Origin: Patescibacteria group bacterium
GTDB lineage: Bacteria > Patescibacteriota > Patescibacteriia > PEXW01
Direction: 5' to 3'
NCBI GenBank assembly: GCA_041665345.1
Contig: JBAYJA010000002.1
Location: forward strand, 18,649 to 82,648
Length of the DNA: 64,000 nt
Part shown: positions 1,792 through 43,765 of the stretch, one piece after another
Position numbering within the stretch: the stretch's first letter is position 1
Layout: each line of letters starts with the position of its first letter
Translations under genes and position numbers: made by a program
The notes under the pieces: generated by a model
Told to the model about the DNA's origin: nothing
What the model saw: only the letters and a program-made list of their open reading frames with translations
Database searches by the model: none

Positions 1792-1992
1792 GGGGATGGG
1801 AAATAATGGAAGGCGGATGACTTTTCTTTCCACCCAACCCGTCCTCCCCTTTCCAAGGGGGCCAGCAGGCGGGTGCGACCCATCGGAAGCACCCCGGACG
1901 GTGCGGAGGGGTAACCCTTATCAGGAAGAAGTTCGTCTTCGGGACAAAGATTGATACAACCTCCAAAAAACCTCCTTCCTCCTCATACATCC

Positions 1993-3069
1993 ATGCTTAC
2001 TTCCGAGCAACAAGCTATTACCGCAATCCTTACCCAAGCGACGCAATACCGAGCGTCGGATGTGCATTTGGTTCCTGGAAGCCAACCCATGCTGCGGGTG
2101 GATGGGAAGCTAACACCCTTGCCAGATGCCAGCGTGCTCACGGCAGACCAACTGCGTGGGTACATTGAGGCAACCCTCACCCCGGCGCAGCTGGCCTTGC
2201 TGGAAAAGGAGCGAGATGTTCGCGTTGCCATTTCCCTGGAAGGGAAGCTGCGTTTTCGGCTGGTTGTGGCCTACCAGAAAGGTTCCTTGGCTTTGGAGCT
2301 TCGGTACATTCCGGACGTGCTCCCTGGGGTGAAAGAGCTTGGCCTGCCGCCCATTGTGGAGCAGATTCCAAGTTTTACCCACGGCTTGGTCCTGCTCTCC
2401 GGTCCGTATGGTTCTGGGCGGACAACTGTTCTGGCGAGCATACTGCAGACCATCAACCTCACCCGCGCTTGCCGCATTGTGACCCTGGAACGGCCAATTG
2501 AGTTTCTCCTGGCTGGTGAGAAGAGTGTCATTGAGCAGCGAGAAATTGGTACAGACGTACCCAGCGTTGCGCACGGCTTAGATCTCTTAGACCGGGAGGA
2601 TGCAGACGTGGTGGCGATTTCGGAATTGGAAAAGCCAGAAGACCTGCAGGCCACGCTCCGCTCCGCGCATGCCGGGCGGCTTATCATTGCCACTCTTCCC
2701 GCAGATTCGGCGGTGCAGACACTGGAAGCCATGGTGGCGGCTTTTTCCTTGGATGAGCAGACCTGGGCCCGGAAAAGGCTGTCTGAGGCTCTCCAGGCCG
2801 TCATAAACCTGCGTTTGGTGCCCCGGGTGGGCGGTGGACGCATCCTGGTTTCTGAAGTGCTGGCGCCGTCCACCCCCATTCGCGCGGGGATTCGGGATGG
2901 GCAGTTCCTTCAGCTGGCAAACACCCTGCAAACCAGCCGTGAGGAGGGGAGCGTGTCGCTCGACCGATCCCTAGCCGAACTGGTACGCTTAAATGAGATC
3001 AAGCCAGATGATGCCGAAGCCGTTGCCTTGGATCCCACCAATTTCAAATTCATGATTAGCCGTTCCTAA
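1993..3069 (+). CDS. pilT: PilT-like T4P retraction ATPase paralog with degenerate catalytic motifs
   Basis: N-terminus aligns with PilT (ASDVHL..MLRVDG). Walker A reads GPYGSGRTT (Lys->Arg) and the His-box position reads TLPADSA (His->Pro). ATG 1993 preferred over TTG 1951. Confidence 0.75.
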   Translation: MLTSEQQAITAILTQATQYRASDVHLVPGSQPMLRVDGKLTPLPDASVLTADQLRGYIEATLTPAQLALLEKERDVRVAISLEGKLRFRLVVAYQKGSLALELRYIPDVLPGVKELGLPPIVEQIPSFTHGLVLLSGPYGSGRTTVLASILQTINLTRACRIVTLERPIEFLLAGEKSVIEQREIGTDVPSVAHGLDLLDREDADVVAISELEKPEDLQATLRSAHAGRLIIATLPADSAVQTLEAMVAAFSLDEQTWARKRLSEALQAVINLRLVPRVGGGRILVSEVLAPSTPIRAGIRDGQFLQLANTLQTSREEGSVSLDRSLAELVRLNEIKPDDAEAVALDPTNFKFMISRS

Positions 3070-3077
3070 ACCCTGCT

Positions 3078-4286
3078 ATGGCCATTTACGACTACCGAGC
3101 GAAGAATGATACCGGGCAAACCGTGGTTGGAGCTGTGGTGGCGCCAACCGACGCGGTTGCGTACGATACCCTACGGGAAAAATCCCTGACGATTATTTCG
3201 CTGAAAGAGCGGAAGAAGAGCGCGCAACTTTTTGGCACCGACATTTTTAACCGGGTGAGCGTGAAGGAGCAGGTCATCTTTGCCCGGCAGCTCTCGGTGA
3301 TGATTTCCGCCAACGTGCCCATTGTGCGTGCCTTGCGTATTTTGGTACGGCAAACCAAGAATGTGCACTTCAAAATGATCCTCTCCGACATTCTGGATGA
3401 AGTGGATGGTGGCGCAAAATTTTCGGCTGCCCTGGCACGGTACCCACAGGTGTTCAATACGTTCTTCGTCTCCATGATCCGCTCAGGGGAAACCACGGGT
3501 AAGCTGGACGAAACCTTGGTGTACTTGGCTGACCAGAAGGAAAAAGATTACGGCGTCATTAGCCGGGTACGAGGTGCCTTCATCTACCCAGCAGTCATCC
3601 TCTTTGCCGTTCTGGCTGTAGGTATTGTCATGGTGGTGTTTGTGCTGCCCAAGCTCATGGAAATTTTCTTGCAGAGCGAAACAGAATTACCTTTTACCAC
3701 CAAGGCGCTTATCGCGGTCAGCGACTTTGTGCGGTTCCGATGGTACATTGTGATTCTGCTCATCATTGGCATTATTGTGGCCTTCGTTGCCTGGCGCCGG
3801 ACACCTGGTGGCCGCCGGGCAATTGACCTTATCAAACTAAAAGTCCCAGTGGCGGGCAGTATTTTTTCCATGATTTATCTGAGCCGCATGTCCCGGGCGT
3901 TGTCCACACTGTTGGCGTCCGGTGTGCCCATTTCCCAAGCCTTAGCCATCACCTCCGAAGTAGTTGGTAACCAAACCTACCAGCGCATTCTCCAAGCCAC
4001 AATCCGGGATGTAGAAGATGGGAATTCCATCACCACCCAGTTTATGAAGAGCAAGAGCGTGCCCTTGATGCTCAGCCAGATGATGAGCGTGGGTGAGCAG
4101 TCTGGGAAAATGGACTTGGTCTTGTTCAAGGTCGCTCAGTTCTATGAGAACGAGCTGGACGGCATGGTCCGCAACCTGGTGGCGCTCATTGAACCAATTA
4201 TCCTGCTCATCATGGGTGTGGGTGTGGGCTTCCTGGTGTCGTCCATTCTCATGCCAATTTACAACGTGAGCAATGCGATACAGTAA
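3078..4286 (+). CDS. pilC: Type IV pilus inner-membrane platform protein PilC/GspF
   Basis: 402 aa with the two-repeat GspF architecture and three TM segments. Sits after the pilus ATPases. Confidence 0.9.
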   Translation: MAIYDYRAKNDTGQTVVGAVVAPTDAVAYDTLREKSLTIISLKERKKSAQLFGTDIFNRVSVKEQVIFARQLSVMISANVPIVRALRILVRQTKNVHFKMILSDILDEVDGGAKFSAALARYPQVFNTFFVSMIRSGETTGKLDETLVYLADQKEKDYGVISRVRGAFIYPAVILFAVLAVGIVMVVFVLPKLMEIFLQSETELPFTTKALIAVSDFVRFRWYIVILLIIGIIVAFVAWRRTPGGRRAIDLIKLKVPVAGSIFSMIYLSRMSRALSTLLASGVPISQALAITSEVVGNQTYQRILQATIRDVEDGNSITTQFMKSKSVPLMLSQMMSVGEQSGKMDLVLFKVAQFYENELDGMVRNLVALIEPIILLIMGVGVGFLVSSILMPIYNVSNAIQ

Positions 4287-4695: not shown

Positions 4696-5301
4696 ATGAC
4701 ACAACGAAAAGGTTTTACCCTCATTGAACTTTTGGTGGTCATTGCCATCATTGGTATCCTCTCAGCGGTCGGTTTGATCGCTTTGAACGGTGCTCGTGAA
4801 AAGGCACGCGACAGCCAACGTAAGAGCGATTTGGGACAGCTCCGCACGGGTTTGGCGCTGTACTATGACACGAATAATGATTACCCATCGTCAGATGCGG
4901 GAACTGCGAATGGCCACACAACAGATAATGCCGAAGGTACAAATCCAACGCTCCCAACAGCCGGAACCGGGTCTATTGCTACAACGACGGTAAAATGGGT
5001 TCGCGCAGACTCTGGTCCTATTGCTGGGTTCTCAGCAGCAGGAGACTTGCTGTTCGATGCGTTAGTAGCAGGACAAAAGTATATTTCTCGTTTGCCCGCA
5101 GCACCAAATGGTGGAGCGAATAACTCCATGAAGCAGTATTGGTACGCTTCATGTACCACTGCTGGCGCAATAGGCAATACTGCCTACGCGATCGCAACGG
5201 AATTGGAACGTCCAGCTGATAGTACAAAACAGATGTGGATAGTAAACTCCACAAATGGTACAGCAGCTGAAACGACGCCCGCAGCAACCTACTGCTCGTA
5301 G
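4696..5301 (+). CDS. Type IV pilin (prepilin; class III signal MTQRKG|FTLIELLVV)
   Basis: GGAGGT Shine-Dalgarno 8 nt upstream of the ATG. Short basic leader, G/FTLIE cleavage motif with Glu+5 and a hydrophobic alpha1. C-terminal Cys pair (C...C) and terminal Ser. Confidence 0.85.
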
Positions 5302-5416
5302 TCTTGATGTTAGTGAAACCAAAGAAGGACCCAGCGGTCCTTTTTTGGCATACTCATCCATAGAGTAAAAAGTTTTTTTAATAGCAATACGAGTGCCTTT
5401 GTATTATACTAGTAGC

Positions 5417-5977
5417 ATGAAAATGATACCCGACCGTAAAGGCTTCACTTTAGTTGAACTCCTTGTGGTTATTGCCATCATTGGAATCCTTTCAGCGGTC
5501 GGACTTATAGCTCTTAACGGAACACGTGAGAAAGCAAGGGATGTTACTCGAAAAAGCGATTTGAAGCAGCTAACAACAGGGTTAGCCTTATACTACGATT
5601 CAAATAATAGTACATACCCTGATTCTACTGCTGCGGGTGTTGCTACTTGGACAGGTTTGGGAGGCGCACAGCTTGGTGAGCGAGCAGATGCAACAGGGTG
5701 TGGCCTTGGATGTGTGGTTTACGATGCTTTGGTTGGATCAAGCAAACATATTGCGCGTTTACCAAATGCACAGACGGTGGGACCAACAGACCTCTCAAAA
5801 CAGTTTTGGTACATGTCTTGTGTTGGCAAAGGAGATTCAAGTCAGGTGAGTGCAGAAGCTTATGCGTTAGTAACTGAATTGGAGCGTCCTGCAGATCCTA
5901 CAAAATCCTGGTGGATATACCGTTCAACTGAGTCAGCAGCGGAAGAAAGTGCACCAACTTCCACGCCTTGCGACTAA
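5417..5977 (+). CDS. Type IV pilin paralog (prepilin; KG|FTLVELLVV)
   Basis: N-terminal ~60 aa nearly identical to the upstream pilin. Conserved ELERPADxTK and a C-terminal Cys pair. Confidence 0.85.
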   Translation: MKMIPDRKGFTLVELLVVIAIIGILSAVGLIALNGTREKARDVTRKSDLKQLTTGLALYYDSNNSTYPDSTAAGVATWTGLGGAQLGERADATGCGLGCVVYDALVGSSKHIARLPNAQTVGPTDLSKQFWYMSCVGKGDSSQVSAEAYALVTELERPADPTKSWWIYRSTESAAEESAPTSTPCD

Positions 5978-5980
5978 GCT

Positions 5981-7555
5981 ATGATGACGTACCTCCGCTA
6001 CTGGTTGCCGGTGGGTTTTCTGCTAATCGCAGTAGCTGCAGGTTGGTTCCTGCCAAGTTTTACCAGTAAATGGCCTTTGGTGGTCATGGGGTTTTTGCTG
6101 CTTCCTCTCGCATGGTCGTTTCATTATTTGGTAAAAATTAAGTTTTCCTGGCGAGAACCGGCGGTGTACTTGTGGCTGAGTGTGGGTTTGGGGCTAATCA
6201 GCAGTGCTCTAGCTGCAAATCCATATTTGGCACTGCGGGGTTGGTTGGTGTTCTTGGCTGGGGTGGTTGTGTACTTTTTGGTTCGTTCACTAACCCCTGA
6301 GCATAGGCAACCCTTGATGATTGGTATCGTCATTGTCGGTGTGGTGATTGTTGGTTGGTCATATCTCGCCACAAAAACGTCATTGTCTATTCCTTGGGTT
6401 CCTGTAGTTAGCAAAGACCCACTACTCCTGACTGCTGCAGTGTTGCTCCCCTTGGCCTGTGCAATTATTCTGCTCATCAGGGCTCAGGGAAGGGGATTGA
6501 GGGTATTGTTTGCTGCTATAGCCATATTCCTCGTTAGCCCGTGGGTACTCCCAAGCACGTGGCAGGCATGGCATAGTGCCTGGGCAGCGCTCACCCAGCA
6601 AATGAATGTACTGCAACAGATATTTTCTGCACACCCGTTGGTGGGCGTTGGTTCAGGGAACTACACTTTTTACTTTCCCCGGTTTGCGTCGAATGCCTCG
6701 GTATATGCCGAACATGCACCAAGTTCACTAGTAGACGCCATTGTAGGTTTTGGCATACTCCCTATTGCCGCTTTCCTCGTTTTTCTCTTTTTCAGTATCC
6801 AACCACTGGTGGCACAAAAAGCCAAAATGCCTTGGGTATACGTGGCGTGCCTTGGTTTGCTTGGAGCCGTAGCCTGTGTCGTCTTTGTGGATCACCCGGC
6901 TGTGGCACTCAGTTGGCCAATCCTGTTTGGACTCATGAGTTCACCGTTCATAACCCAAGAGGGCTCCAGTCAAGAGACGCGACGAATCTTTCGGCGGTCA
7001 CTTCTTGTTGGTGGTTGGGTGGTAGCACTCCTGAGTCTGGCTATGGGTTTTGGTATTAATCGCTTTGGGCGAGCAGAGCGGGCAGCACAGTCCGGAGACA
7101 CCAAGAGCGCTGCATCGCTCTATGCCTCTGCCCTGCATTTTGATGCTGACCCAATGCAACGTCGGGCATATGCGGAGTCGCTTTGGCTGAATGGACACCA
7201 AAAGAAGGATCTTGCTGAGGCGGAGCATCAAGCCCGTTTAGCCTACCAGTGGAATAGGGAAGACACTTTTGCATACCAAGTCGCTGCTCGAATTGCTTTT
7301 TCAGAGGGCAATAATGCCGAGGCGGAACGGTTATACAAAGAGGTGCTACAACGAGATAGATTTTTTTCCTTAGACGCAGCTATTTCTTTGGCTGATGTGT
7401 ATAAGAAGCAGGGGAAGAAAGTTGAGGAACAACAACTTGTCGAACAAACCCTGGCGCCATTTACTGTAGAGGTAGTGGAAAAAGGCTTTGCTTTTTCAAC
7501 TATCTCCCAGCAACTTGAGCAAATCAAGAAACGTCTTGTAGATCTAAAAAAGTAG
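5981..7555 (+). CDS. O-antigen ligase (Wzy_C) family polytopic membrane protein with C-terminal TPR domain
   Basis: About 10 TM helices. Wzy_C-like loop HPLVGVGSGNY...AEHAPSSLVDAIVGFGIL. C-terminal ~180 aa shows helical TPR-like repeats. Confidence 0.65.
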   Translation: MMTYLRYWLPVGFLLIAVAAGWFLPSFTSKWPLVVMGFLLLPLAWSFHYLVKIKFSWREPAVYLWLSVGLGLISSALAANPYLALRGWLVFLAGVVVYFLVRSLTPEHRQPLMIGIVIVGVVIVGWSYLATKTSLSIPWVPVVSKDPLLLTAAVLLPLACAIILLIRAQGRGLRVLFAAIAIFLVSPWVLPSTWQAWHSAWAALTQQMNVLQQIFSAHPLVGVGSGNYTFYFPRFASNASVYAEHAPSSLVDAIVGFGILPIAAFLVFLFFSIQPLVAQKAKMPWVYVACLGLLGAVACVVFVDHPAVALSWPILFGLMSSPFITQEGSSQETRRIFRRSLLVGGWVVALLSLAMGFGINRFGRAERAAQSGDTKSAASLYASALHFDADPMQRRAYAESLWLNGHQKKDLAEAEHQARLAYQWNREDTFAYQVAARIAFSEGNNAEAERLYKEVLQRDRFFSLDAAISLADVYKKQGKKVEEQQLVEQTLAPFTVEVVEKGFAFSTISQQLEQIKKRLVDLKK

Positions 7556-7590: not shown

Positions 7591-8010
7591 ATGAAAGCAA
7601 TACCAAAAGGTCTCTCCATGGTAAGTCTCGTCCTCATTGGCCTGGTGTTCCTGGCATTGGCTGCTGGGGCGCTGAGTTTGGTTGGCCGGGAACGCGCCAA
7701 GGCGCGGGATGCCCAACGCGTGGCCGATATGGCGCGGCTGCAGGTTGGGTTTTTGCTGCTGTACAATCGGACGGCCAGTTACGCCGGTGCGGCCCAAGGT
7801 GGGTGTGCCACGGTCAATGCTCCGGTTCGTACTTGTAACCTTGCACAAGATTTGACCAGCATCGCTTCCTTCAAAGACCCACGCGGGGGTGACTACCTGG
7901 TGTCCAAAGTGCCAGATGAGAAGACGTACGAAATTTCCTTCACCTTGGAACGTGGCACCTCTGGACTGGTTGCCGGAAAGCATGTCCTAACCCCGGCTGG
8001 GTTGCAGTAA
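7591..8010 (+). CDS. Pilin-like protein with degenerate prepilin N-terminus (no Glu+5)
   Basis: KG|LSMVSLVLIGLVFLALAAG hydrophobic alpha1 followed by an ARDAQRVADMARLQ pilin-like segment. 139 aa. Confidence 0.55.
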   Translation: MKAIPKGLSMVSLVLIGLVFLALAAGALSLVGRERAKARDAQRVADMARLQVGFLLLYNRTASYAGAAQGGCATVNAPVRTCNLAQDLTSIASFKDPRGGDYLVSKVPDEKTYEISFTLERGTSGLVAGKHVLTPAGLQ

Positions 8011-8205: not shown

Positions 8206-8583
8206 ATGTCCACGAAGCGCACATCACAAGCACGAGCTCTGCGGAAGAACCAGACGGAAACTGAGGCCATACTCTGGCAACATCTGCGCGCACATCGCTT
8301 CTCGGGTGTGAAGTTTCGCCGGCAGTATCCCATTGGTCCGTACATTGCAGATTTTTGTGCGCCAAGCTGTAGGTTGATTGTTGAGGTGGATGGGAGTGGA
8401 CATGAGGTGCCGGAGCAGCGCATGCATGATGTTCGGCGAGATACTTGGTTGTCCGAACAAGGGTGGAAAGTATTGCGTTTTTGGAACAATGAAGTTGGAA
8501 GTGAACTTGAAGCGGTGTTAGAGAAAATATTTGAAAGTATCCCCCAGATACAGAACATGGATGCAGAAGGTAAAAATCCCTAA
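8206..8583 (+). CDS. DUF559 endonuclease-domain protein (Vsr-like fold)
   Basis: QARALRKNQTETEAILWQHLR...GWKVLRFWNNEV matches the DUF559 signature. ATG 8206 lies just 3' of the GC-rich hairpin block. Confidence 0.7.
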   Translation: MSTKRTSQARALRKNQTETEAILWQHLRAHRFSGVKFRRQYPIGPYIADFCAPSCRLIVEVDGSGHEVPEQRMHDVRRDTWLSEQGWKVLRFWNNEVGSELEAVLEKIFESIPQIQNMDAEGKNP

Positions 8584-8591
8584 CGAATAAA

Positions 8592-9380
8592 ATGAAAATA
8601 CTCATCCTCACCACCCTCTTCTTCCTCGGCGCCTGCATAGGCAGTTTTTTGAATGTTGTCATTTACCGTCTACCACGCCGGAAGAGTTTTTTGAAAATCA
8701 AAGACCGGTCGTACTGTCCCCGTTGTCGGAGAGGTTTGGAGTGGTACGATCTCATTCCAGTTGTAAGCTACCTGGTGCTCCGGGGGAAGTGCAGGAAGTG
8801 CGGCAAAAAAATTAGTCCCCAGTACATTTTGGTTGAGCTAAGCATGGCTATCCTTGTACCGTTGCTGTGGTGGATGCATGGGACCAGCGTGTACGCACTG
8901 ATTGGTGTTGTGGGTGCCGTGGGATTACTCATCATTGCCTGGATTGATGGTCAACGGAAGGTAGTGCCAGATGCCGTGAGTTTGCCAACTCTGGGAGCGC
9001 TCGTCATCTTGCAGGTGGTGTATGCGTTTGTGGGGACTGATGCGCCCTGGCAGCACTTGTGGCACATTGCTTTAGCTTCCGTCCTTGGTGGGGGTTGGTT
9101 TGCCGCCCAATGGTTCCTTTCCAAGGGGCGATGGGTGGGGTCTGGGGATATCCGTATAGGGGCAATTCTTGGTGCGTATCTTGGCTTGTCCCTGGGTGGC
9201 TTAGCACTCTTTGGTTCGTACATTTTTGGGAGTATCTGGGCGGCGGTGCTGCTTAGCCGTGGCAAGGCGAAATTTGGCACGCAGTTGCCCTTTGGCGTCT
9301 TCCTGGGGCTTGCCGGCATCTTGACGTTCCTCTTTGGGCATGTCGTGGTAGAATGGTACCAGGAGCTCATTGGCTTCTAG
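8592..9380 (+). CDS. pilD: Prepilin peptidase (A24 family) PilD
   Basis: N-terminal CxxC...CxxC (CPRCRRG...CRKCGKK), multiple TM helices and a GSGDIRIG active-site region. Confidence 0.9.
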   Translation: MKILILTTLFFLGACIGSFLNVVIYRLPRRKSFLKIKDRSYCPRCRRGLEWYDLIPVVSYLVLRGKCRKCGKKISPQYILVELSMAILVPLLWWMHGTSVYALIGVVGAVGLLIIAWIDGQRKVVPDAVSLPTLGALVILQVVYAFVGTDAPWQHLWHIALASVLGGGWFAAQWFLSKGRWVGSGDIRIGAILGAYLGLSLGGLALFGSYIFGSIWAAVLLSRGKAKFGTQLPFGVFLGLAGILTFLFGHVVVEWYQELIGF

Positions 9381-9407: not shown

Positions 9408-10319
9408 ATGCGCAAAGTAGCAGGATTTACCCTTATTGAAGCCCTGGTTGTCATTGCCATCACCGGCATAATGCTAGGTGTGCTTTTGGCTAATTACCGA
9501 AGGTCAAACGAGAATAGTTTGCTGATTCGGGAGGTTGCCAGCGTGATGAGCCACATTCGCTTGGCGCAGGAAACCGCGGCGAGTAGTAAAATAACTGAGG
9601 CTCAAAATAATAATGATGAACTTCGGTTTTGTGAGAATGATATTCACCGTGAGTGTGATGCAGACAGTGACTGTCCTGGATCACCAGGTGTACAAAGATG
9701 TGCATTGATGCCACCTGCTGGAGGTGAGGTCATTAAATTTGATTGTGGATCAAACGAGTATGATTGGTATGCTGACACAGTACAGTGCAAGGCGAATTGC
9801 TTTCTTGGAGCGCATGTTTTTGCTGACGCGGAACTACTCTTAAACGCTTCTGATAACATTATTCACCATGGTACCGATCCTGACGGAGCCGGTGTTCCAC
9901 CGCATCTAGAGGATTATAAGCGAGAACGGCTGGTCTGGGATGCAAAAGTTCAAGTGAAGGATATAAAAATTAGTAATGCGGTTGCGTACGCGCAGTGTAC
10001 CGGACTTGGAGGGAATCGTACTGTTTGGAATGGGAGTTCTACTTTAGCGCCAACGAGCTCTGCGGTGCCTGTTGATCGAGAATTAAGCGCAACTATCCAA
10101 TTTACTTCTGAATCAGGCGACGCATTCTCTGCGAGTATTGGCCGGAAAGTGATTCTGACCGATAATGTCGCTCCAACGTCCGCAGATGGTGCACATACGC
10201 CATGGTCAAAGGTGGAAATATTGATGGGATTGGTCAATCGGACTACTGATTGCCGACTCGTTATAATGACTGATAAAAATGTGTTAACTGATACACCAGA
10301 TGCCGATTGCGCGATCTAA
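9408..10319 (+). CDS. Minor pilin-like protein, Cys-rich (prepilin MRKVAG|FTLIEALVV)
   Basis: Canonical class III signal with Glu+5. About 270 aa extracellular part with 14 or more cysteines. Confidence 0.75.
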   Translation: MRKVAGFTLIEALVVIAITGIMLGVLLANYRRSNENSLLIREVASVMSHIRLAQETAASSKITEAQNNNDELRFCENDIHRECDADSDCPGSPGVQRCALMPPAGGEVIKFDCGSNEYDWYADTVQCKANCFLGAHVFADAELLLNASDNIIHHGTDPDGAGVPPHLEDYKRERLVWDAKVQVKDIKISNAVAYAQCTGLGGNRTVWNGSSTLAPTSSAVPVDRELSATIQFTSESGDAFSASIGRKVILTDNVAPTSADGAHTPWSKVEILMGLVNRTTDCRLVIMTDKNVLTDTPDADCAI

Positions 10320-11415
10320 AAAATTTCGCTTGCCGGCTGGAACCACTCTCTTGGAGGGAATTATTGCCATTGGGGTAATAATCACTGCGGTTGTTGGGTC
10401 TTTGGTACTCATTATGACTACCATTAAGCTTGGCCGAGCAAACCAAGACCGCGTGGTGGCGCAGAATCTAGCGAGGGAAGGTGTGGAGCTGGTGGTGAGT
10501 TTACGGAACAGTGCGTCCCTCATGCGGGCGAGTGATGCATCAGTTTCATGGGATCAATTTTTCACTACATTAGTCCCAAAAAATTACGCGGCTTTGGCTC
10601 ACATGGATGTTGGAGCTGACTTTTTGGGTTTCTATCAAATTACCGGAGACACGCGTTGGTGTTACGAACGTGGCGCAGATGTTACTCCTCCAGCCTGCGG
10701 TGGGTACCCATCGGATAACTGCGTCCGATATGATTCTAACGTCATCACTGGTGTGGATATTGTTGTGAATCCGGGGCAGACCGTTCCTGCAGGAGTGGTG
10801 AATCGATGTGACATCATTGCCCTTGAAAATTACATTTTTGCTGGGTGGGATCTCCCACGGCTCTGTGGTCCGCTCCAAGATGCTTTTCCATATCCAGGTG
10901 TTTCAACAACGGTAGATTGTGACTTTAATGGAGATAACCAGCTAGACATCTCTGACCTCGTCATGATGGTAAACACCATTAATGACGCTTCATACCACTT
11001 GACCACTGGGTTTCCAAAAATGGCAATCAAACCCCCAGGGACGCAGACTGTGGCTGCGCAGTTGGAGATGTTTGTACCAGCCACAATAGATCTCACCTTT
11101 GACCCAAATGAAGCTTGGAATGATTCCCGAGCGAGGGTGCAAAGTTACCTGGGTACCTACATGCAAAACGTTGATGCAAGCAACCCTGCACTTGCTGCAA
11201 CGAAGTACTTCCGAGTTGTTTCAACCCGTGAAGTATGCCGAACCCCTGGTGGGGAGGAAATTATGCCAATGAATAGTAACAATGATTGCAAGGGGGAATT
11301 TGCTGGGGCAAAGAAGGTGGGTGTTTTGGTGACCAGTGAAGTACGCTGGCCAACGCCAACGAGTTCAACCAAAGCAGTGTACCAAACGTATTTGTATGAC
11401 TGGCTCCAGTTTTAA
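10300..11415 (+). CDS. Minor pilin-like protein with dockerin-like Ca-binding loop (prepilin ..LPAG|TTLLEGIIA)
   Basis: Class III signal with Glu+5. Internal DCDFNGDNQLDISDLVMMVNTIND resembles a dockerin/EF-hand calcium loop. Confidence 0.7.
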   Translation: MPIARSKKFRLPAGTTLLEGIIAIGVIITAVVGSLVLIMTTIKLGRANQDRVVAQNLAREGVELVVSLRNSASLMRASDASVSWDQFFTTLVPKNYAALAHMDVGADFLGFYQITGDTRWCYERGADVTPPACGGYPSDNCVRYDSNVITGVDIVVNPGQTVPAGVVNRCDIIALENYIFAGWDLPRLCGPLQDAFPYPGVSTTVDCDFNGDNQLDISDLVMMVNTINDASYHLTTGFPKMAIKPPGTQTVAAQLEMFVPATIDLTFDPNEAWNDSRARVQSYLGTYMQNVDASNPALAATKYFRVVSTREVCRTPGGEEIMPMNSNNDCKGEFAGAKKVGVLVTSEVRWPTPTSSTKAVYQTYLYDWLQF

Positions 11416-12253
11416 TTTTTTTGTCTTTGGCTTTCGGAACCGTCAACGGTCTGGTTTTACGCTTATTGAAGTTATTGTGACTATGGCGCTTTTCTCCATG
11501 ACGGTGCTCATGGCAGTCACATTGCTCGTAGTATTCATTCAGCAGCAGCGAAGAGCGGTTTCCCAAGAGCAACTGCAAAATGATATTCGGGCAGTTATTG
11601 AGCAAATGTCGCAAGAACTTCGTGAAAGCTCTATTGACTATGCATTCTACCAAAGTGAATTCCCATTACCTACTGGCAGACAGCGTCTATTCACTTCACT
11701 TGATGGTCAGGCGAATAATTCGGGTGATAGCTACCTCGCTTTTGTTGATGCCTTTGAACAGCGGATTCTCTATCGTTTTGCCTCGAATACCCTCCAACGC
11801 TGCGTACCCACCATTACTCTCGACTGTACGGATGCAGCTGAGAGTTGGGAAACCGTCACTCCGGTCTCAATGCAGATTACTAACTTCACTTTTTATGTGT
11901 CGCCTTCAGCCGACCCTTTTGCAGGCACTGGTCCGATAAATTGCGGAACACCTCCCGGAGGCGGCGTCACAGGGGTCTACAATGAAAGCATCTGTCGTTG
12001 GGGTGAGCACTGCCAAACAATTGATGGGAATGGCTTGCTAGGAGATAATTGCGCTTTTGGAAAAGGAAATCCACGTGCATGCTATTGCATTCCGCAAAAG
12101 TTTGGTGAAGTCATTGGTCTCCATCCCCGGGTGACCTTCAGCATTGCTGCGCAACGGACAGTAGGCCAGAATACCGTGAGTGATATTTTTCAAACCACCG
12201 TTGCCAGCCGGGTCTTCCAAAACATGCAACAACTGAACCAGTATGCGCCGTAA
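11396..12253 (+). CDS. Minor pilin-like protein (..RSG|FTLIEVIVTMALF)
   Basis: G/FTLIE motif with Glu+5 and a hydrophobic helix. In-frame ATG at 11396, but the leader length is uncertain. Confidence 0.65.
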   Translation: MTGSSFNFFVFGFRNRQRSGFTLIEVIVTMALFSMTVLMAVTLLVVFIQQQRRAVSQEQLQNDIRAVIEQMSQELRESSIDYAFYQSEFPLPTGRQRLFTSLDGQANNSGDSYLAFVDAFEQRILYRFASNTLQRCVPTITLDCTDAAESWETVTPVSMQITNFTFYVSPSADPFAGTGPINCGTPPGGGVTGVYNESICRWGEHCQTIDGNGLLGDNCAFGKGNPRACYCIPQKFGEVIGLHPRVTFSIAAQRTVGQNTVSDIFQTTVASRVFQNMQQLNQYAP

Positions 12254-13520
12254 GCAATTTTCACCAAAGCGAAAGGGTGTCACATTGATTTTAGCACTCA
12301 TGGTCATGAGTGCCGTCATTGCCATTGGGGTGACGATAGTTGCGATTGTCGTTTTCCAAACCCGCATTAATGCAACAACAACTCAGGGGCAGCAGGGCTA
12401 CTACGCGGCGGAATCTGGCATTGAGCAGGCACTCAGCAAAGTCTCAGGACTTCGAAGCGGTACCTTAGCTGCAGCAGAATTGGCTTTACAAGGCTCCCTT
12501 GCGCCAAATGCATCTCCTTTTCCTTTCAATCTTGACCTGAGTACGGCCGTGACAAGTGGAACTGTAACCCAAAAAGAGTTAAAGCAAAATCAAAGTACGT
12601 TTGTGGAAATCTATGATGTTGATGCCTCCATCACCACAAACCTGGGTGCTCCTGGTTTATGTGTTTTTGCTGAAAGTGGCGACACGACCAGTGATGAAGT
12701 CCTTGAAATTAGCTGGGTTGCTTGGCTGCAGACAACTGGGCAAGTTTCTGCAACGCAACGCGTCTTAGCTTCGTATTCTGAATTCTCTACTGAAAATAAT
12801 TGTACGATTGGAGGGGTAACGTACGACGGTTTCGTTGTCCCACTTACCCAATTTTACCCGGCGTTTCCAGGAACGTACGCAGGTTTTCGGATCCGCATTA
12901 CAGCTTTGGCGCCGGAGGGAACGAATGCAAATGGTGATGTTGCAAATCTCACAATCAACAGTTACCCGCAGCTGAATTCCCACCTCCGCATCAAATCCAC
13001 TTCACGCAGCGCGTTCGCTAACCAGCAGCAAGCATTGCTGGCCGTCGTACCCTGGTCAATACCCCTTTCCTCCCTCTTTGACTTTGTCATATTCAGTGAA
13101 AAAGATTTGACGAAAGACAAAGCGCAATCAACGACGGATGAAATTTTGCGGTATGGACCGTACACTGCCCCAGCACCTAACACCCCTACTTTAGTTGGAT
13201 CAGCTGCAATTCAAAATAATGCCGATCCATTAGTGAATCCATTCACTTCATGCGATACTGCTCCGTGTAAATACTATGTTCGTCTGTTGTATACCACTGG
13301 ATATAGCGGGAGCGTTACCTTACCAACATCAGGCGGAACAACGGAAACCGTCAATGCTGTCGGAAGTGGTTCGTGTATTATTACTGATCAATTCACAATT
13401 TCTACAAAGACACCGCCCCCAAGTATCAACATAAACTTTGGAGGAGATACGACGGGGGTGAGCTACGAACTTCTGAATCACCTCACGTATCGTGACCCAA
13501 CCGAAGGACCTTGTCCGTAA
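12243..13520 (+). CDS. Large minor pilin/tip-protein candidate lacking Glu+5 (GspK/PilX-like)
   Basis: KRKG|VTLILALMVMSAVIAIG N-terminal helix with no Glu5. 425 aa. Last gene of the pilin run. Confidence 0.55.
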   Translation: MRRKQFSPKRKGVTLILALMVMSAVIAIGVTIVAIVVFQTRINATTTQGQQGYYAAESGIEQALSKVSGLRSGTLAAAELALQGSLAPNASPFPFNLDLSTAVTSGTVTQKELKQNQSTFVEIYDVDASITTNLGAPGLCVFAESGDTTSDEVLEISWVAWLQTTGQVSATQRVLASYSEFSTENNCTIGGVTYDGFVVPLTQFYPAFPGTYAGFRIRITALAPEGTNANGDVANLTINSYPQLNSHLRIKSTSRSAFANQQQALLAVVPWSIPLSSLFDFVIFSEKDLTKDKAQSTTDEILRYGPYTAPAPNTPTLVGSAAIQNNADPLVNPFTSCDTAPCKYYVRLLYTTGYSGSVTLPTSGGTTETVNAVGSGSCIITDQFTISTKTPPPSININFGGDTTGVSYELLNHLTYRDPTEGPCP

Positions 13521-13521
13521 G

Positions 13522-16484
<2,963 letters not shown>

Positions 16485-42279: not shown

Positions 42280-42680
42280 AAATTTTGGGTATTGATTGGG
42301 GCGAGCGACACTTGGGGCTGGCGTTGAGTAGTGAAGACGGTGCTTGGGCCTTTCCCTGGAAGACCGAAAGCATCCGGGGTTTTTCGCATGCCATGCAGGT
42401 CATTACCCAGATTGTGGGAGCAGAGAAAATTGGGGCCGTCGTGGTGGGGTTACCATTAGGGATGAACGGAAAAGACACGCCACAGACCAGCCGGGTACGG
42501 GAAGTCGTGGCAGATTTGTCCAATCTGATTTCGGTTCCGGTGGAGATGGTTGATGAGCGTTTGACCACCCAGTCGGCCGTGCGTTTGCAGCAGGATGGTG
42601 ATCGGCATACTGATGCGCCAAATGACACCCAGGCAGCAGTGGCGATTCTCCAAACCTACCTTGACCAGCATCGGTCATGA
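42276..42680 (+). CDS. ruvX: Putative pre-16S rRNA nuclease / Holliday-junction resolvase-like YqgF
   Basis: MKILGIDWGERHLGLALS...VVVGLPLGMNG is typical of YqgF/RuvX. Confidence 0.85.
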   Translation: MKILGIDWGERHLGLALSSEDGAWAFPWKTESIRGFSHAMQVITQIVGAEKIGAVVVGLPLGMNGKDTPQTSRVREVVADLSNLISVPVEMVDERLTTQSAVRLQQDGDRHTDAPNDTQAAVAILQTYLDQHRS

Positions 42681-43765
42681 ACTTCGTGCTTGCCTTTGGC
42701 GCTGCTTTTTTGCTCAGCCTGGGTCTGACCCCGATGGTGAGACGCGTCGCGTTACGCTGGGGGATTGTTGACCGGCCCAGCGACGCGCCAGACCGGAAGA
42801 TCCAAACCCAACCCATTGCCTTGCTGGGTGGCATTGCGCCGTTCCTGAGTTTTACCATGGTAAGTTGGGGCTTTGCGTTGGGCACTGATTGGTTTCTGCA
42901 AGGTTTTTTGCAACCCAAGTTTCTCTTGGGTATGACCGTGGCTGGTGTCGTGCTTATGATTGGCGGTGTGCTGGATGATGTGAAGCACCTTCGCCCCAGC
43001 CGGCAGCTACTCTTCCCAATTCTCGCTGTACTCATCATCATCGCATCTGGTATTGGCATCCCGTACATTACCAATCCTTTTGGCGGAATCATCAATTTAG
43101 AAAGCGTATCCTGGACTGTGCTGGTGATTGCCGGCGTGCCGTACATGCTCACCTTGTTCGCTGACCTCTTTGCCTTTGGTTGGGTCATGGCCACCACGTA
43201 CACCACCAAGATTCTGGATGGGTTGGATGGTTTGGTCGCCGGCACCACGCTCATTGGTGGTATTGTCATTGCCATCCTCAGTTTTTCCAAAGAGGTATAC
43301 CAGCCAGAGCTGGCCGTGCTCGCGCTGGCTTTGGCCGGAGCCGCAGCCGGGTTCTTGGTGTGGAACTGGCACCCAGCAAAAATTTTCTTGGGTGAAGGTG
43401 GGTCAACCTGGACTGGCTTCATGCTGGGCACGCTCGCTATTCTCGCCGGGGGAAAAATTGCCACCGCCTTGCTCATCCTGGGCATTCCCGCGCTGGACGT
43501 CGCTTGGGTCATTCTCCGACGTTTATTCGGCCACCGATCTGCAGCCAGTGCAGACAGAGGACACCTGCACTTCCGTTTGCTGGACGCTGGTTTGAGCCAC
43601 CGACAGGCAGTGCTCATGCTGTATACCATCACTGCAGTGTTTGGTATGGTCACCCTGGTCACGCGCGGCCCGCAGAAAGTGTACGCCCTCTTGGGGCTGG
43701 CAGGAGTCATGGTGCTGCTGGCAACGGCAGTCGTTCTTGCTTACAGGCAGAAACAGCGTAGATAA
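42677..43765 (+). CDS. Glycosyltransferase family 4 (MraY/WecA-type polyprenyl-phosphate sugar-1-phosphate transferase)
   Basis: 10-11 TM helices with DDxxD-type (LDDVKHL) and HxxxLD-like motifs of the MraY/WecA family. Confidence 0.8.
   Translation: MNFVLAFGAAFLLSLGLTPMVRRVALRWGIVDRPSDAPDRKIQTQPIALLGGIAPFLSFTMVSWGFALGTDWFLQGFLQPKFLLGMTVAGVVLMIGGVLDDVKHLRPSRQLLFPILAVLIIIASGIGIPYITNPFGGIINLESVSWTVLVIAGVPYMLTLFADLFAFGWVMATTYTTKILDGLDGLVAGTTLIGGIVIAILSFSKEVYQPELAVLALALAGAAAGFLVWNWHPAKIFLGEGGSTWTGFMLGTLAILAGGKIATALLILGIPALDVAWVILRRLFGHRSAASADRGHLHFRLLDAGLSHRQAVLMLYTITAVFGMVTLVTRGPQKVYALLGLAGVMVLLATAVVLAYRQKQRR

Follow-up and report, generated by a model that had tools for sequence, protein, structure and literature searches.

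A histidine-less Wzy_C-TPR protein as a possible non-catalytic pilin partner in an exchangeable type IV pilus cassette of Patescibacteria

Does a membrane protein encoded directly downstream of two pilin genes in Patescibacteria transfer glycans to those pilins, or does it serve them without catalysis? The question arises at positions 4696-7555 of a 64,000-nucleotide stretch from a Patescibacteria group bacterium (NCBI GenBank assembly GCA_041665345.1, contig JBAYJA010000002.1, positions 18,649 to 82,648 of the forward strand), which we call the window. An earlier interpretation made from the letters alone (the sequence-only reading) described two tandem paralogous prepilins followed by a polytopic protein with a TPR domain. 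These coordinates and features are as described. By analogy, that reading proposed that the polytopic protein, hereafter the accessory protein, is a pilin O-oligosaccharyltransferase (O-OTase). The proposal matters since type IV pili (T4P) are the main tool of Patescibacteria (the candidate phyla radiation, CPR) for host-cell attachment. A study of Saccharibacteria T4P predicted pilin glycosylation from sequence sites, naming no enzyme (PMC11623550). Our answer is tentative. At a little short of even confidence, we favor an accessory protein that is derived from an O-OTase and acts as a non-catalytic, pilin-specific partner within a swappable, Kerfeldbacteria/Parcubacteria-like T4P cassette.

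The accessory gene (5981-7555, plus strand) encodes 524 amino acids, in which a divergent membrane domain with a putative Wzy_C fold (residues 1-360) precedes an extracytoplasmic TPR domain (residues 361-524; 7061-7552, plus strand) that is predicted to lie outside the membrane and is recognized by TPR profiles. When 5981-7555 was checked against Wzy_C (PF04932; gathering score 31.7 bits), as the sequence-only reading had proposed, the window protein gave no match even at E ≤ 10, a result that for this copy formally speaks against that reading. There was also no PglL_A or Wzy_C_2 match. Pfam and NCBIfam returned only a weak TPR signal for the window copy; this signal is clear in 12 of 12 family members.

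Since the window protein lacks a direct Wzy_C match, we approached its ancestry through family profiles. A search of 5.8 billion proteins yielded 12 full-length relatives (38-100% identity), and the homologs are annotated as Patescibacteria or Parcubacteria. Among 1.84 billion representatives, the family comprises only four clusters at 50% identity (≥395 bits), beyond which scores fall to 65 bits, and is found in 4 of 185,579 GTDB species representatives: Ca. Kerfeldbacteria, Ca. Parcubacteria and two metagenome-assembled genomes labeled "Patescibacteria group." Three of the 12 members match Wzy_C at E ≤ 1, the best (P0004) at 29.9 bits, under the cutoff. We searched a profile of the membrane domain only (A2) against 1.84 billion representatives. 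Beyond the family there were 567 weaker matches at E ≤ 1e-3 (best, 5e-13), all at profile positions about 150-330. Ten of these outside matches were tested; every one proved to be a bona fide Wzy_C protein (52-82 bits), with C-terminal TPR repeats in six. Distant profile homology to bona fide Wzy_C proteins is thus present despite the missing direct match. The nearest relatives with the catalytic histidine (P0014, P0015, P0019 and P0022) are 26-30% identical to the window protein over about 290-330 amino acids.

The full-length family profile found TPR proteins only among PDB entries (E = 8e-12), and the membrane-only profile found nothing at E ≤ 10. E. coli WaaL, aligned directly to the family profile, scored about 0, which is not significant, and was used for motifs and spacings only. 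A WaaL-like fold is predicted by a single method. AlphaFold2 secondary structure and a crude hydropathy scan, read by eye, indicate about 11 hydrophobic helices; as the scan merges and splits helices, transmembrane (TM) counts are approximate. From a positive-inside reading of the loops, the protein would have its N terminus inside, its external loop and TPR domain outside, and about 11 TM helices. Given the solid profile evidence, the accessory protein appears to be a real yet highly divergent offshoot of Wzy_C+TPR proteins, and we consider its Wzy_C descent, together with its membership in the cassette described below, very likely.

Has this offshoot kept the catalytic signature of its relatives? 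We compared 146 distant Wzy_C matches, aligned to the family profile, with the 12 family members, taking column equivalence from those significant alignments. The glycines of the GxGxG motif and one downstream glycine are present in 100% of the canonical matches and 100% of the family; GVGSGN in the window protein is this motif. The histidine column of the "AHN" motif, in contrast, contains histidine in 116 of 145 canonical sequences and proline in all 12 family members (Pro247, codon 6719-6721). Three other columns have also changed. The adjacent asparagine column (residue 248) is Asn in 114 of 147 canonical sequences, versus Ser (nine), Asn (two) or Asp (one) in the family; the glutamate column (residue 256, just beyond the loop) is Glu in 107 of 147, versus Ser (nine) or Gly (three); and the arginine column (residue 204), 15 residues before a conserved proline, is Arg in 64 of 107, versus Thr (six), Leu (five) or Gln (one). 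E. coli K-12 WaaL, which reads ...HLH338NEIIEAG and GAR288-x14-P, has the same spacings as the canonical columns. In WaaL, H337/338 and R288 are essential, and the equivalent histidine is needed in PglL (H349), PglS (H324) and TfpM (H286) (PMC10269572, PMC9829042, PMC12800693).

The "O-antigen-ligase-like loop" of the sequence-only reading was therefore half right: its GVGSGN is the GxGxG motif, but the histidine of its "AEHAP" is H245, which lies two residues upstream of the catalytic column and is not conserved (His, Arg and Gln in four family members each). There is a practical warning here, as a motif read by eye pointed to the wrong histidine. The former catalytic external loop, placed at residues 191-249 (6551-6727, plus strand) by column statistics against canonical Wzy_C, has also been remodeled. 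The external loop has 52 amino acids and one non-conserved Lys or Arg, versus 67-71 amino acids and four to eight such residues in the nearest His-bearing relatives. Before the loop, the family is about 70 amino acids, or roughly two TM helices, shorter than the outgroup. We do not claim loss of an arginine equivalent to WaaL R215, as the outgroup has no conserved arginine at that short loop. The external residues that are invariant in the family are K30, N80, Y82, W139, P141, W201, G222, G224 and R367, together with an acidic residue at 252 that lines up with the glutamate five residues after the histidine in E. coli WaaL and P0014-16. Judged by the catalytic residues that are missing, the accessory protein is probably no longer a canonical O-OTase, that is, an enzyme that uses the histidine to transfer an undecaprenyl-pyrophosphate-linked glycan en bloc to pilin Ser or Thr.

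If the old loop has lost its signature, where does constraint lie? Within the family, mean pairwise identity is 0.62 in TM helices 1 and 2, 0.64 in a cytoplasmic EHR loop and 0.58 in the TPR domain, versus 0.36 in the external loop, 0.30-0.31 in the Wzy_C core helices and 0.41 in the membrane domain. Six His-bearing relatives are most alike in the external loop (0.50 versus 0.34 overall, with the TPR domain at 0.33), which carries conserved QRW, PRY-x-HN and E..AE.G motifs. In the family, constraint has left the former catalytic loop and now falls on the external TPR domain, TM helices 1 and 2 and cytoplasmic motifs. Compared with the closely related locus L005, the accessory gene has a nonsynonymous divergence (dN) of 0.159 (PilC, 0.010) and a ratio to synonymous divergence (dN/dS) of about 0.07, highest at about 0.16 in the old loop; since dS was saturated (1-2.3, or undefined), these ratios are rough, and we rely on nothing beyond the difference in dN and the finding of purifying selection. 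Twelve intact full-length orthologs, the most divergent 38% identical, share 60 invariant positions and are free of frameshifts. With intact orthologs and a dN/dS of about 0.07, the accessory gene is not a pseudogene.

The genomic position of the accessory gene is conserved. In nine independent His-less loci, it lies between the pilin gene or genes and an open reading frame (ORF) of ~138 amino acids followed by PilD, wherever the contig reaches. On the longer contigs, the upstream genes are those for PilB, a response regulator, PilT and PilC, and the downstream genes encode minor pilins, a metallophosphatase and LigA. In sister genomes, exactly this place in the order pilin, accessory, small pilin-like ORF and PilD is taken by the genes for the His-bearing P0014, P0015, P0019 and P0022. 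The window protein is 38-74% identical to those of the His-less loci and about 26-30% identical to those of the four outgroup loci. The O-OTase proposal thus holds up in its positional part, as the gene lies 3' of a pilin like those for TfpO and TfpM and has His-bearing relatives in the same slot, and falters in its catalytic part, with the histidine replaced by Pro in 12 of 12 members and the arginine by Thr, Leu or Gln.

Comparison of related loci indicates that the pilin and accessory genes are exchanged as a unit. Relative to the window, L005 is 94-99% identical in PilB, PilT and PilC (PilC, 99%), 88% in the response regulator and 96% in pilin 1, falling to 84% in pilin 2 and 74% in the accessory protein. 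L010 is 95% identical in the small ORF and 90% in PilD (the same as L005), versus 37% in the pilin and 27% in the accessory protein, here P0014; its DNA matches the window at about 83% from 7615 on, with no alignment across 4696-7555. In PilB, PilT, PilC and the response regulator, the His-bearing locus L012 stands just as far from the window as the His-less locus L003. Only L011 showed the left breakpoint, which falls within the N-terminal region of the pilin.

The right edge is marked by the small pilin-like ORF (7591-8010, plus strand; 139 amino acids), where conservation resumes after the variable cassette. It was found in every examined locus whose contig passes the accessory gene. In the closest loci it is better kept than pilin 2 and the accessory gene (95% in both L005 and L010), and it is 62-72% identical in loci whose pilins are 37-49% identical. 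The ORF has no Pfam match. Its N-terminal region, KG/LSMVS..., with Ser in place of Glu at +5, is similar to that of pilin 1 (37% identity, E = 3e-10), and it contains a Cys pair and an N-R-T sequon. Taken together, the sequence comparisons indicate a swappable cassette in which pilin and accessory gene vary together while the T4P flanks stay. No glycan-synthesis gene adjoins the accessory gene in any locus examined. In P. aeruginosa, such pilin-accessory cassettes can encode a glycosyltransferase, as with TfpO and TfpW, or an assembly factor that is not an enzyme, as with TfpX/Y/Z (PMC11841053).

Do the pilins carry the acceptor that a TfpO-like enzyme would use? Prepilin 1 (4696-5301, plus strand; 201 amino acids) and prepilin 2 (5417-5977, plus strand; 186 amino acids) both contain the prepilin N-methylation motif (PF07963, E = 5e-9 and 3.5e-9, respectively; also TIGR02532). 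A class III signal peptide, KG/FTLIELLVV, was read from the sequence, and PilD is encoded in the same locus. The near-identical N-terminal halves, C-terminal Cys pairs and ...TYCS end noted in the sequence-only reading were all borne out, and the two pilins are 53% identical overall (E = 4e-58). Pilin 1 begins MTQRKG/FTLIELL..., ends ...AATYCS and has one Cys pair. Pilin 2 reads ...DRKG/FTLVELL..., ends ...TSTPCD and has four Cys, forming a second pair. A C-terminal Ser, the acceptor under the TfpO rule, is not conserved among these pilins: the accessory gene adjoins pilin 2, with its terminal Asp, and not pilin 1, with its terminal Ser; the last residue varies among loci (S, N, D, Q or P), and accessory-adjacent pilins end in D or N.

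Pilin tails also differ between the two kinds of loci. In His-less loci the tails read T-[PY]-C-[S/N/D/Q], with one Cys-free pilin ending ...ATPAP. In His-bearing loci there are mostly three residues after the last Cys, often including Ser or Thr (CPQT, CPSV, CTPT, CPVS; a small sample of seven outgroup tails). In this sample, a TfpO/TfpM-like tail accompanies the canonical enzyme, and a shortened tail accompanies the His-less one. Separately, pilin 1 and its orthologs contain "NSTNGT" or "NALNGT" at residues about 183-190 (window 5200-5290), giving one or two N-x-S/T sequons; pilin 2 is without them.

Signals around the pilin genes suggest how the cassette is transcribed. Directly 3' of pilin 1 lies a strong, seemingly bidirectional hairpin followed by a U-run (5319-5348, plus strand) that resembles an intrinsic terminator, with an A-tract, a 13-bp stem and a U-tract (-19.9 kcal/mol; z = -5.4 versus shuffles); the terminator scanner flagged it on the minus strand only, and the plus-strand reading was taken from the fold. 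A promoter-like site follows at 5378-5407 (plus strand; TTAATA-18-TATTAT). It matches the consensus at 9 of 12 positions and is weak, with one site found versus 3.8 expected by chance. The pilin 2 stop and accessory start are 3 nt apart, with no room for a terminator between them. Given the hairpin and the 3-nt gap, pilin 1 looks separately terminated from a unit of pilin 2, accessory gene and small ORF, which appear to form one transcription unit. Pilin 1 is the probable major pilin, and the hairpin and weak promoter-like site suggest that it is a separate and probably far more abundant expression unit.

How might a protein with these properties act? Catalytic residues lost together, a shortened and basic-poor loop, and constraint concentrated on a binding domain favor a pseudoenzyme that has kept its scaffold. 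The protein very likely descends from Wzy_C+TPR membrane enzymes of the same operon slot, with the catalytic His/Arg signature. In its lineage the His, Arg, Glu and, in most members, the Asn have been lost, the loop is shorter and roughly two TM helices are missing. The TPR domain and TM helices 1 and 2 may now bind the cognate, co-evolving pilins or the conserved pilin-like protein, and the partner could promote pilin maturation or entry into the assembly machine, a role analogous to that of the non-enzymatic TfpX/Y/Z of P. aeruginosa. In its full form, the proposal is that a Wzy_C pilin oligosaccharyltransferase became a pseudoenzyme that serves the T4P machine of ultrasmall Patescibacteria as a pilin-specific chaperone or adaptor, and that its cassette is one of two or more alternatives, some glycosylating and others not, which are exchanged between near-identical genomes; we put this forward as a possibility that falls somewhat below an even chance.

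The main alternative is that the protein is still an active pilin O-OTase or glycan transferase with a remodeled, non-canonical site, which we regard as a serious though rather doubtful possibility. A lipid-linked glycan, perhaps initiated by a GT4 enzyme, would go to Thr or Ser of the pilin tails, with the Thr in T-[PY]-C-x as a candidate, and the TPR domain would dock the pilin. Wzy_C descent, purifying selection and a TfpO/TfpM-like place directly 3' of a pilin gene all fit this alternative, as does rapid co-divergence with the pilins, which is expected for antigenic or phage-driven glycosylation (PMC11841053). The Thr/Ser-rich tails beside the disulfide loop are reminiscent of the penultimate-Thr sequon of TfpM (PMC9829042).

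Several observations weigh against the pseudoenzyme we favor, and most of them lend weight to the active transferase. The retained external features (GxGxGN, D/E252, K30, N80/Y82 and R367) could form an alternative active site. The invariant proline at the histidine column indicates selection rather than drift. Moreover, about 10% of Wzy_C matches carry Pro (TPN/TPD) at this column, and family members P0008-P0010, with SPN/SPD, resemble this class. Two Pro-type proteins (L019/L020, 7001-8206; L021, 6422-7591) are encoded in polysaccharide or lipopolysaccharide core-like loci with flippase and glycosyltransferase genes. As Pro-type Wzy_C proteins occur in such loci, the scaffold is presumably able to transfer glycan without that histidine; this weakens the simple equation of "His-less" with "dead" and suggests a sizeable His-independent class inside Pfam Wzy_C. 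In the pilins, the Thr two residues before the last Cys is kept wherever Cys is present, and the tails are rich in T, S, A and P, which fits O-glycosylation. The loop is the least confident part of the model (predicted local distance difference test score, pLDDT, <50 for residues 223-252). Finally, Wzy and WaaL enzymes generally evolve fast, so low loop conservation alone is no proof of inactivity.

What stands against an active transferase is that every characterized O-OTase and WaaL depends on the histidine (PMC9829042, PMC12800693), and this family has Pro in its place. The family also lacks the Glu and the Arg equivalent to R288, and its loop offers no conserved basic residue to hold the pyrophosphate. 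In addition, the old loop is among the least constrained parts of the protein, the opposite of the His-bearing sister group, and the post-Cys tail, which bears Ser or Thr in that group, is cut to one variable residue.

A donor pathway would also be required, and the window offers little of one. The sequence-only reading correctly recognized a WecA/MraY-type initiating transferase at 42677-43765 (plus strand), a GT4 polyprenyl-phosphate sugar-1-phosphate transferase of the WecA/TagO/MraY type (PF00953, E = 2e-28). Among NCBIfam models it scores highest with WecA, at 81 bits and well short of the 326-bit cutoff, followed by MraY at 52 bits. The presence of a WecA-like GT4 in the window is compatible with an active transferase. 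However, 35 kb separate the gene from the cassette, it follows immediately on SecY, Adk and Map, and no flippase or further glycosyltransferase was found among the 27 other window ORFs scanned (64 kb of genome). We therefore rejected the GT4 gene as linked evidence for a pilin module, the use to which it had been put. By sequence, it would indicate only a capacity to start a polyprenyl-linked glycan, not pilin glycosylation.

A third explanation, which we consider improbable, is that the protein is a Wzy- or WaaL-like polymerase or ligase for a cell-envelope glycan, such as a wall polysaccharide or S-layer glycan, and that its place in the operon is incidental. Membership in the Wzy_C superfamily, the His-less Wzy_C proteins in polysaccharide loci and the GT4 gene in the genome would all suit such an enzyme. 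Its genomic setting does not, as the gene is fixed between the pilins and PilD in 9 of 9 His-less and four tested outgroup loci, begins 3 nt from pilin 2, is exchanged with the pilin as a unit and has no adjacent glycan-synthesis genes. That the gene is a mere relic of pilin glycosylation, decaying and without function, as the lost catalytic residues and the dN raised over that of neighboring genes might suggest, is very improbable and effectively refuted by the 12 intact orthologs, 60 invariant positions, dN/dS of about 0.07, invariant Pro and conserved TPR domain.

The cassette sits within a complete, co-directional T4P operon that, from the ORF list and Pfam matches, fills the first 13.5 kb of the window. 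Upstream of the pilins, all on the plus strand, are PilB (10-1308; its 5' end cut off at the edge of the window), a response regulator (about 1325-1747; ORF from 1277), PilT (1951-3069) and PilC (3078-4286). These four calls rest on the window ORFs and on the same Pfam order in loci L003, L005 and L012, where the syntenic genes match T2SSE (PilB and PilT), Response_reg and T2SSF (PilC). The response regulator is a stand-alone receiver gene between PilB and PilT, and is kept wherever the PilB-PilT region is present (L003, L005, L006/L007, L012 and L018).

Downstream of the small pilin-like ORF, also on the plus strand, are a gene for a DUF559/REase-like endonuclease (8206-8583, ORF from 8089; PF04480, E = 1e-40), the prepilin peptidase PilD (8592-9380; PF06750, E = 1e-32; PF01478, E = 3e-7) and four minor-pilin-like genes (9408-10319, 10300-11415, 11336-12253 and 12243-13520), three of which match N_methyl or PilX_N. 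The DUF559 gene, between the small ORF and PilD, is missing from the close relatives L005 and L010, which makes it an insertion in this window. GIY-YIG nuclease genes are found in the same operon elsewhere: in the gap between the small ORF and PilD in L003/L004, after PilD in L012/L013 and among the minor pilins in L006. The recurrence of nuclease insertions beside a recombining cassette may be no coincidence. The minor pilins are 43-77% identical to those of L005 (three at 43-53%), versus 94-99% for PilB, PilT and PilC, and are thus fast-evolving; a dockerin-like profile (PF00404, E = 0.005) weakly matches the one at 10300-11415. Beyond the pilus operon are a metallophosphatase (13522-14409, minus strand) and the NAD-dependent DNA ligase LigA (14427-16484). 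L003/L004 and L005 have this pair 3' of the operon as well, which makes the right flank syntenic among relatives at least as distant as 38% identity.

What does this locus add to what is known? Pilin-linked Wzy_C O-OTases and pilin-accessory cassettes are known already. In our literature search, no paper described pilin accessories of CPR bacteria that resemble O-antigen ligases or are fused to TPR. Within the literature searched, the apparent novelty lies in a TPR-fused form fixed in Patescibacteria T4P operons and in a His-less derivative that seems to be exchanged against the canonical form. The Wzy_C+TPR slot can hold either a canonical His-bearing protein, a plausible pilin O-OTase, or the rare His-less form, swapped with the pilin between close genomes. 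The window locus and its sister loci provide the first concrete candidates for pilin glycosylation enzymes in Patescibacteria. They raise two questions: do CPR pili carry glycans, and can the Wzy_C scaffold function, in catalysis or in binding, without the histidine of characterized O-OTases? If the accessory protein is indeed a pseudoenzyme, cassette exchange would switch the pilus surface chemistry of these episymbionts, as in P. aeruginosa pilin groups, except that a single protein family would supply both the catalytic and the non-catalytic version.

How does the accessory protein compare with characterized systems? Like WaaL (C. metallidurans 7TPJ and E. coli K-12), it has GxGxG and an acidic residue five positions after the histidine column. 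Unlike WaaL, to which it is 8% identical, it lacks equivalents of R288 and H337/338, has fewer TM helices and carries an added TPR domain; there was no sequence-level PDB match, and Foldseek did not recover the match to WaaL. PglL and PglS share with it the Wzy_C superfamily, a length of about 520-600 amino acids and an extra C-terminal periplasmic domain (PMC9829042, PMC12800693). They differ in that their essential H349/H324 is Pro here, the C-terminal domain here is TPR and no PglL_A or Wzy_C_2 profile matches.

TfpO (PilO) and TfpM of Pseudomonas, Acinetobacter and Moraxella are closer in setting. They too are polytopic Wzy_C proteins encoded 3' of a pilin in a pilin-specific cassette, and their cognate pilins likewise end in a disulfide loop and a very short tail (PMC9829042). 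At 420-470 amino acids, however, TfpO and TfpM are without the C-terminal TPR domain of the accessory protein. The window copy has no Pfam Wzy_C match, the position of TfpM H286 is an invariant Pro, the Arg and Glu are lost and the C-terminal Ser/Thr of the pilin is not kept. The hosts also differ, as to our knowledge Patescibacteria have no outer membrane and no O-antigen.

The closest counterparts are the His-bearing sister T4P proteins (P0014, P0015, P0019 and P0022), which share the slot, the order of Wzy_C and then TPR, and an NxYAxLxGW motif. These sister proteins are longer (577-640 amino acids), match Wzy_C at 52-72 bits and, unlike the accessory family, keep QRW...PRY-x-HN...E..AE.G. 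For the cassette as a whole, P. aeruginosa groups I-V (TfpO/W/X/Y/Z) provide the nearest parallel. The accessory protein has no homology to the small, 3-TM TfpX/Y/Z, each cassette here holds two pilins, and the terminator-like hairpin follows pilin 1 rather than separating the adjacent pilin and accessory gene. The P. aeruginosa cassettes have a terminator after the major pilin gene, which in our loci would correspond to the hairpin after pilin 1; as in our loci, pilin and downstream accessory gene vary as a unit within conserved T4P flanks (PMC11841053).

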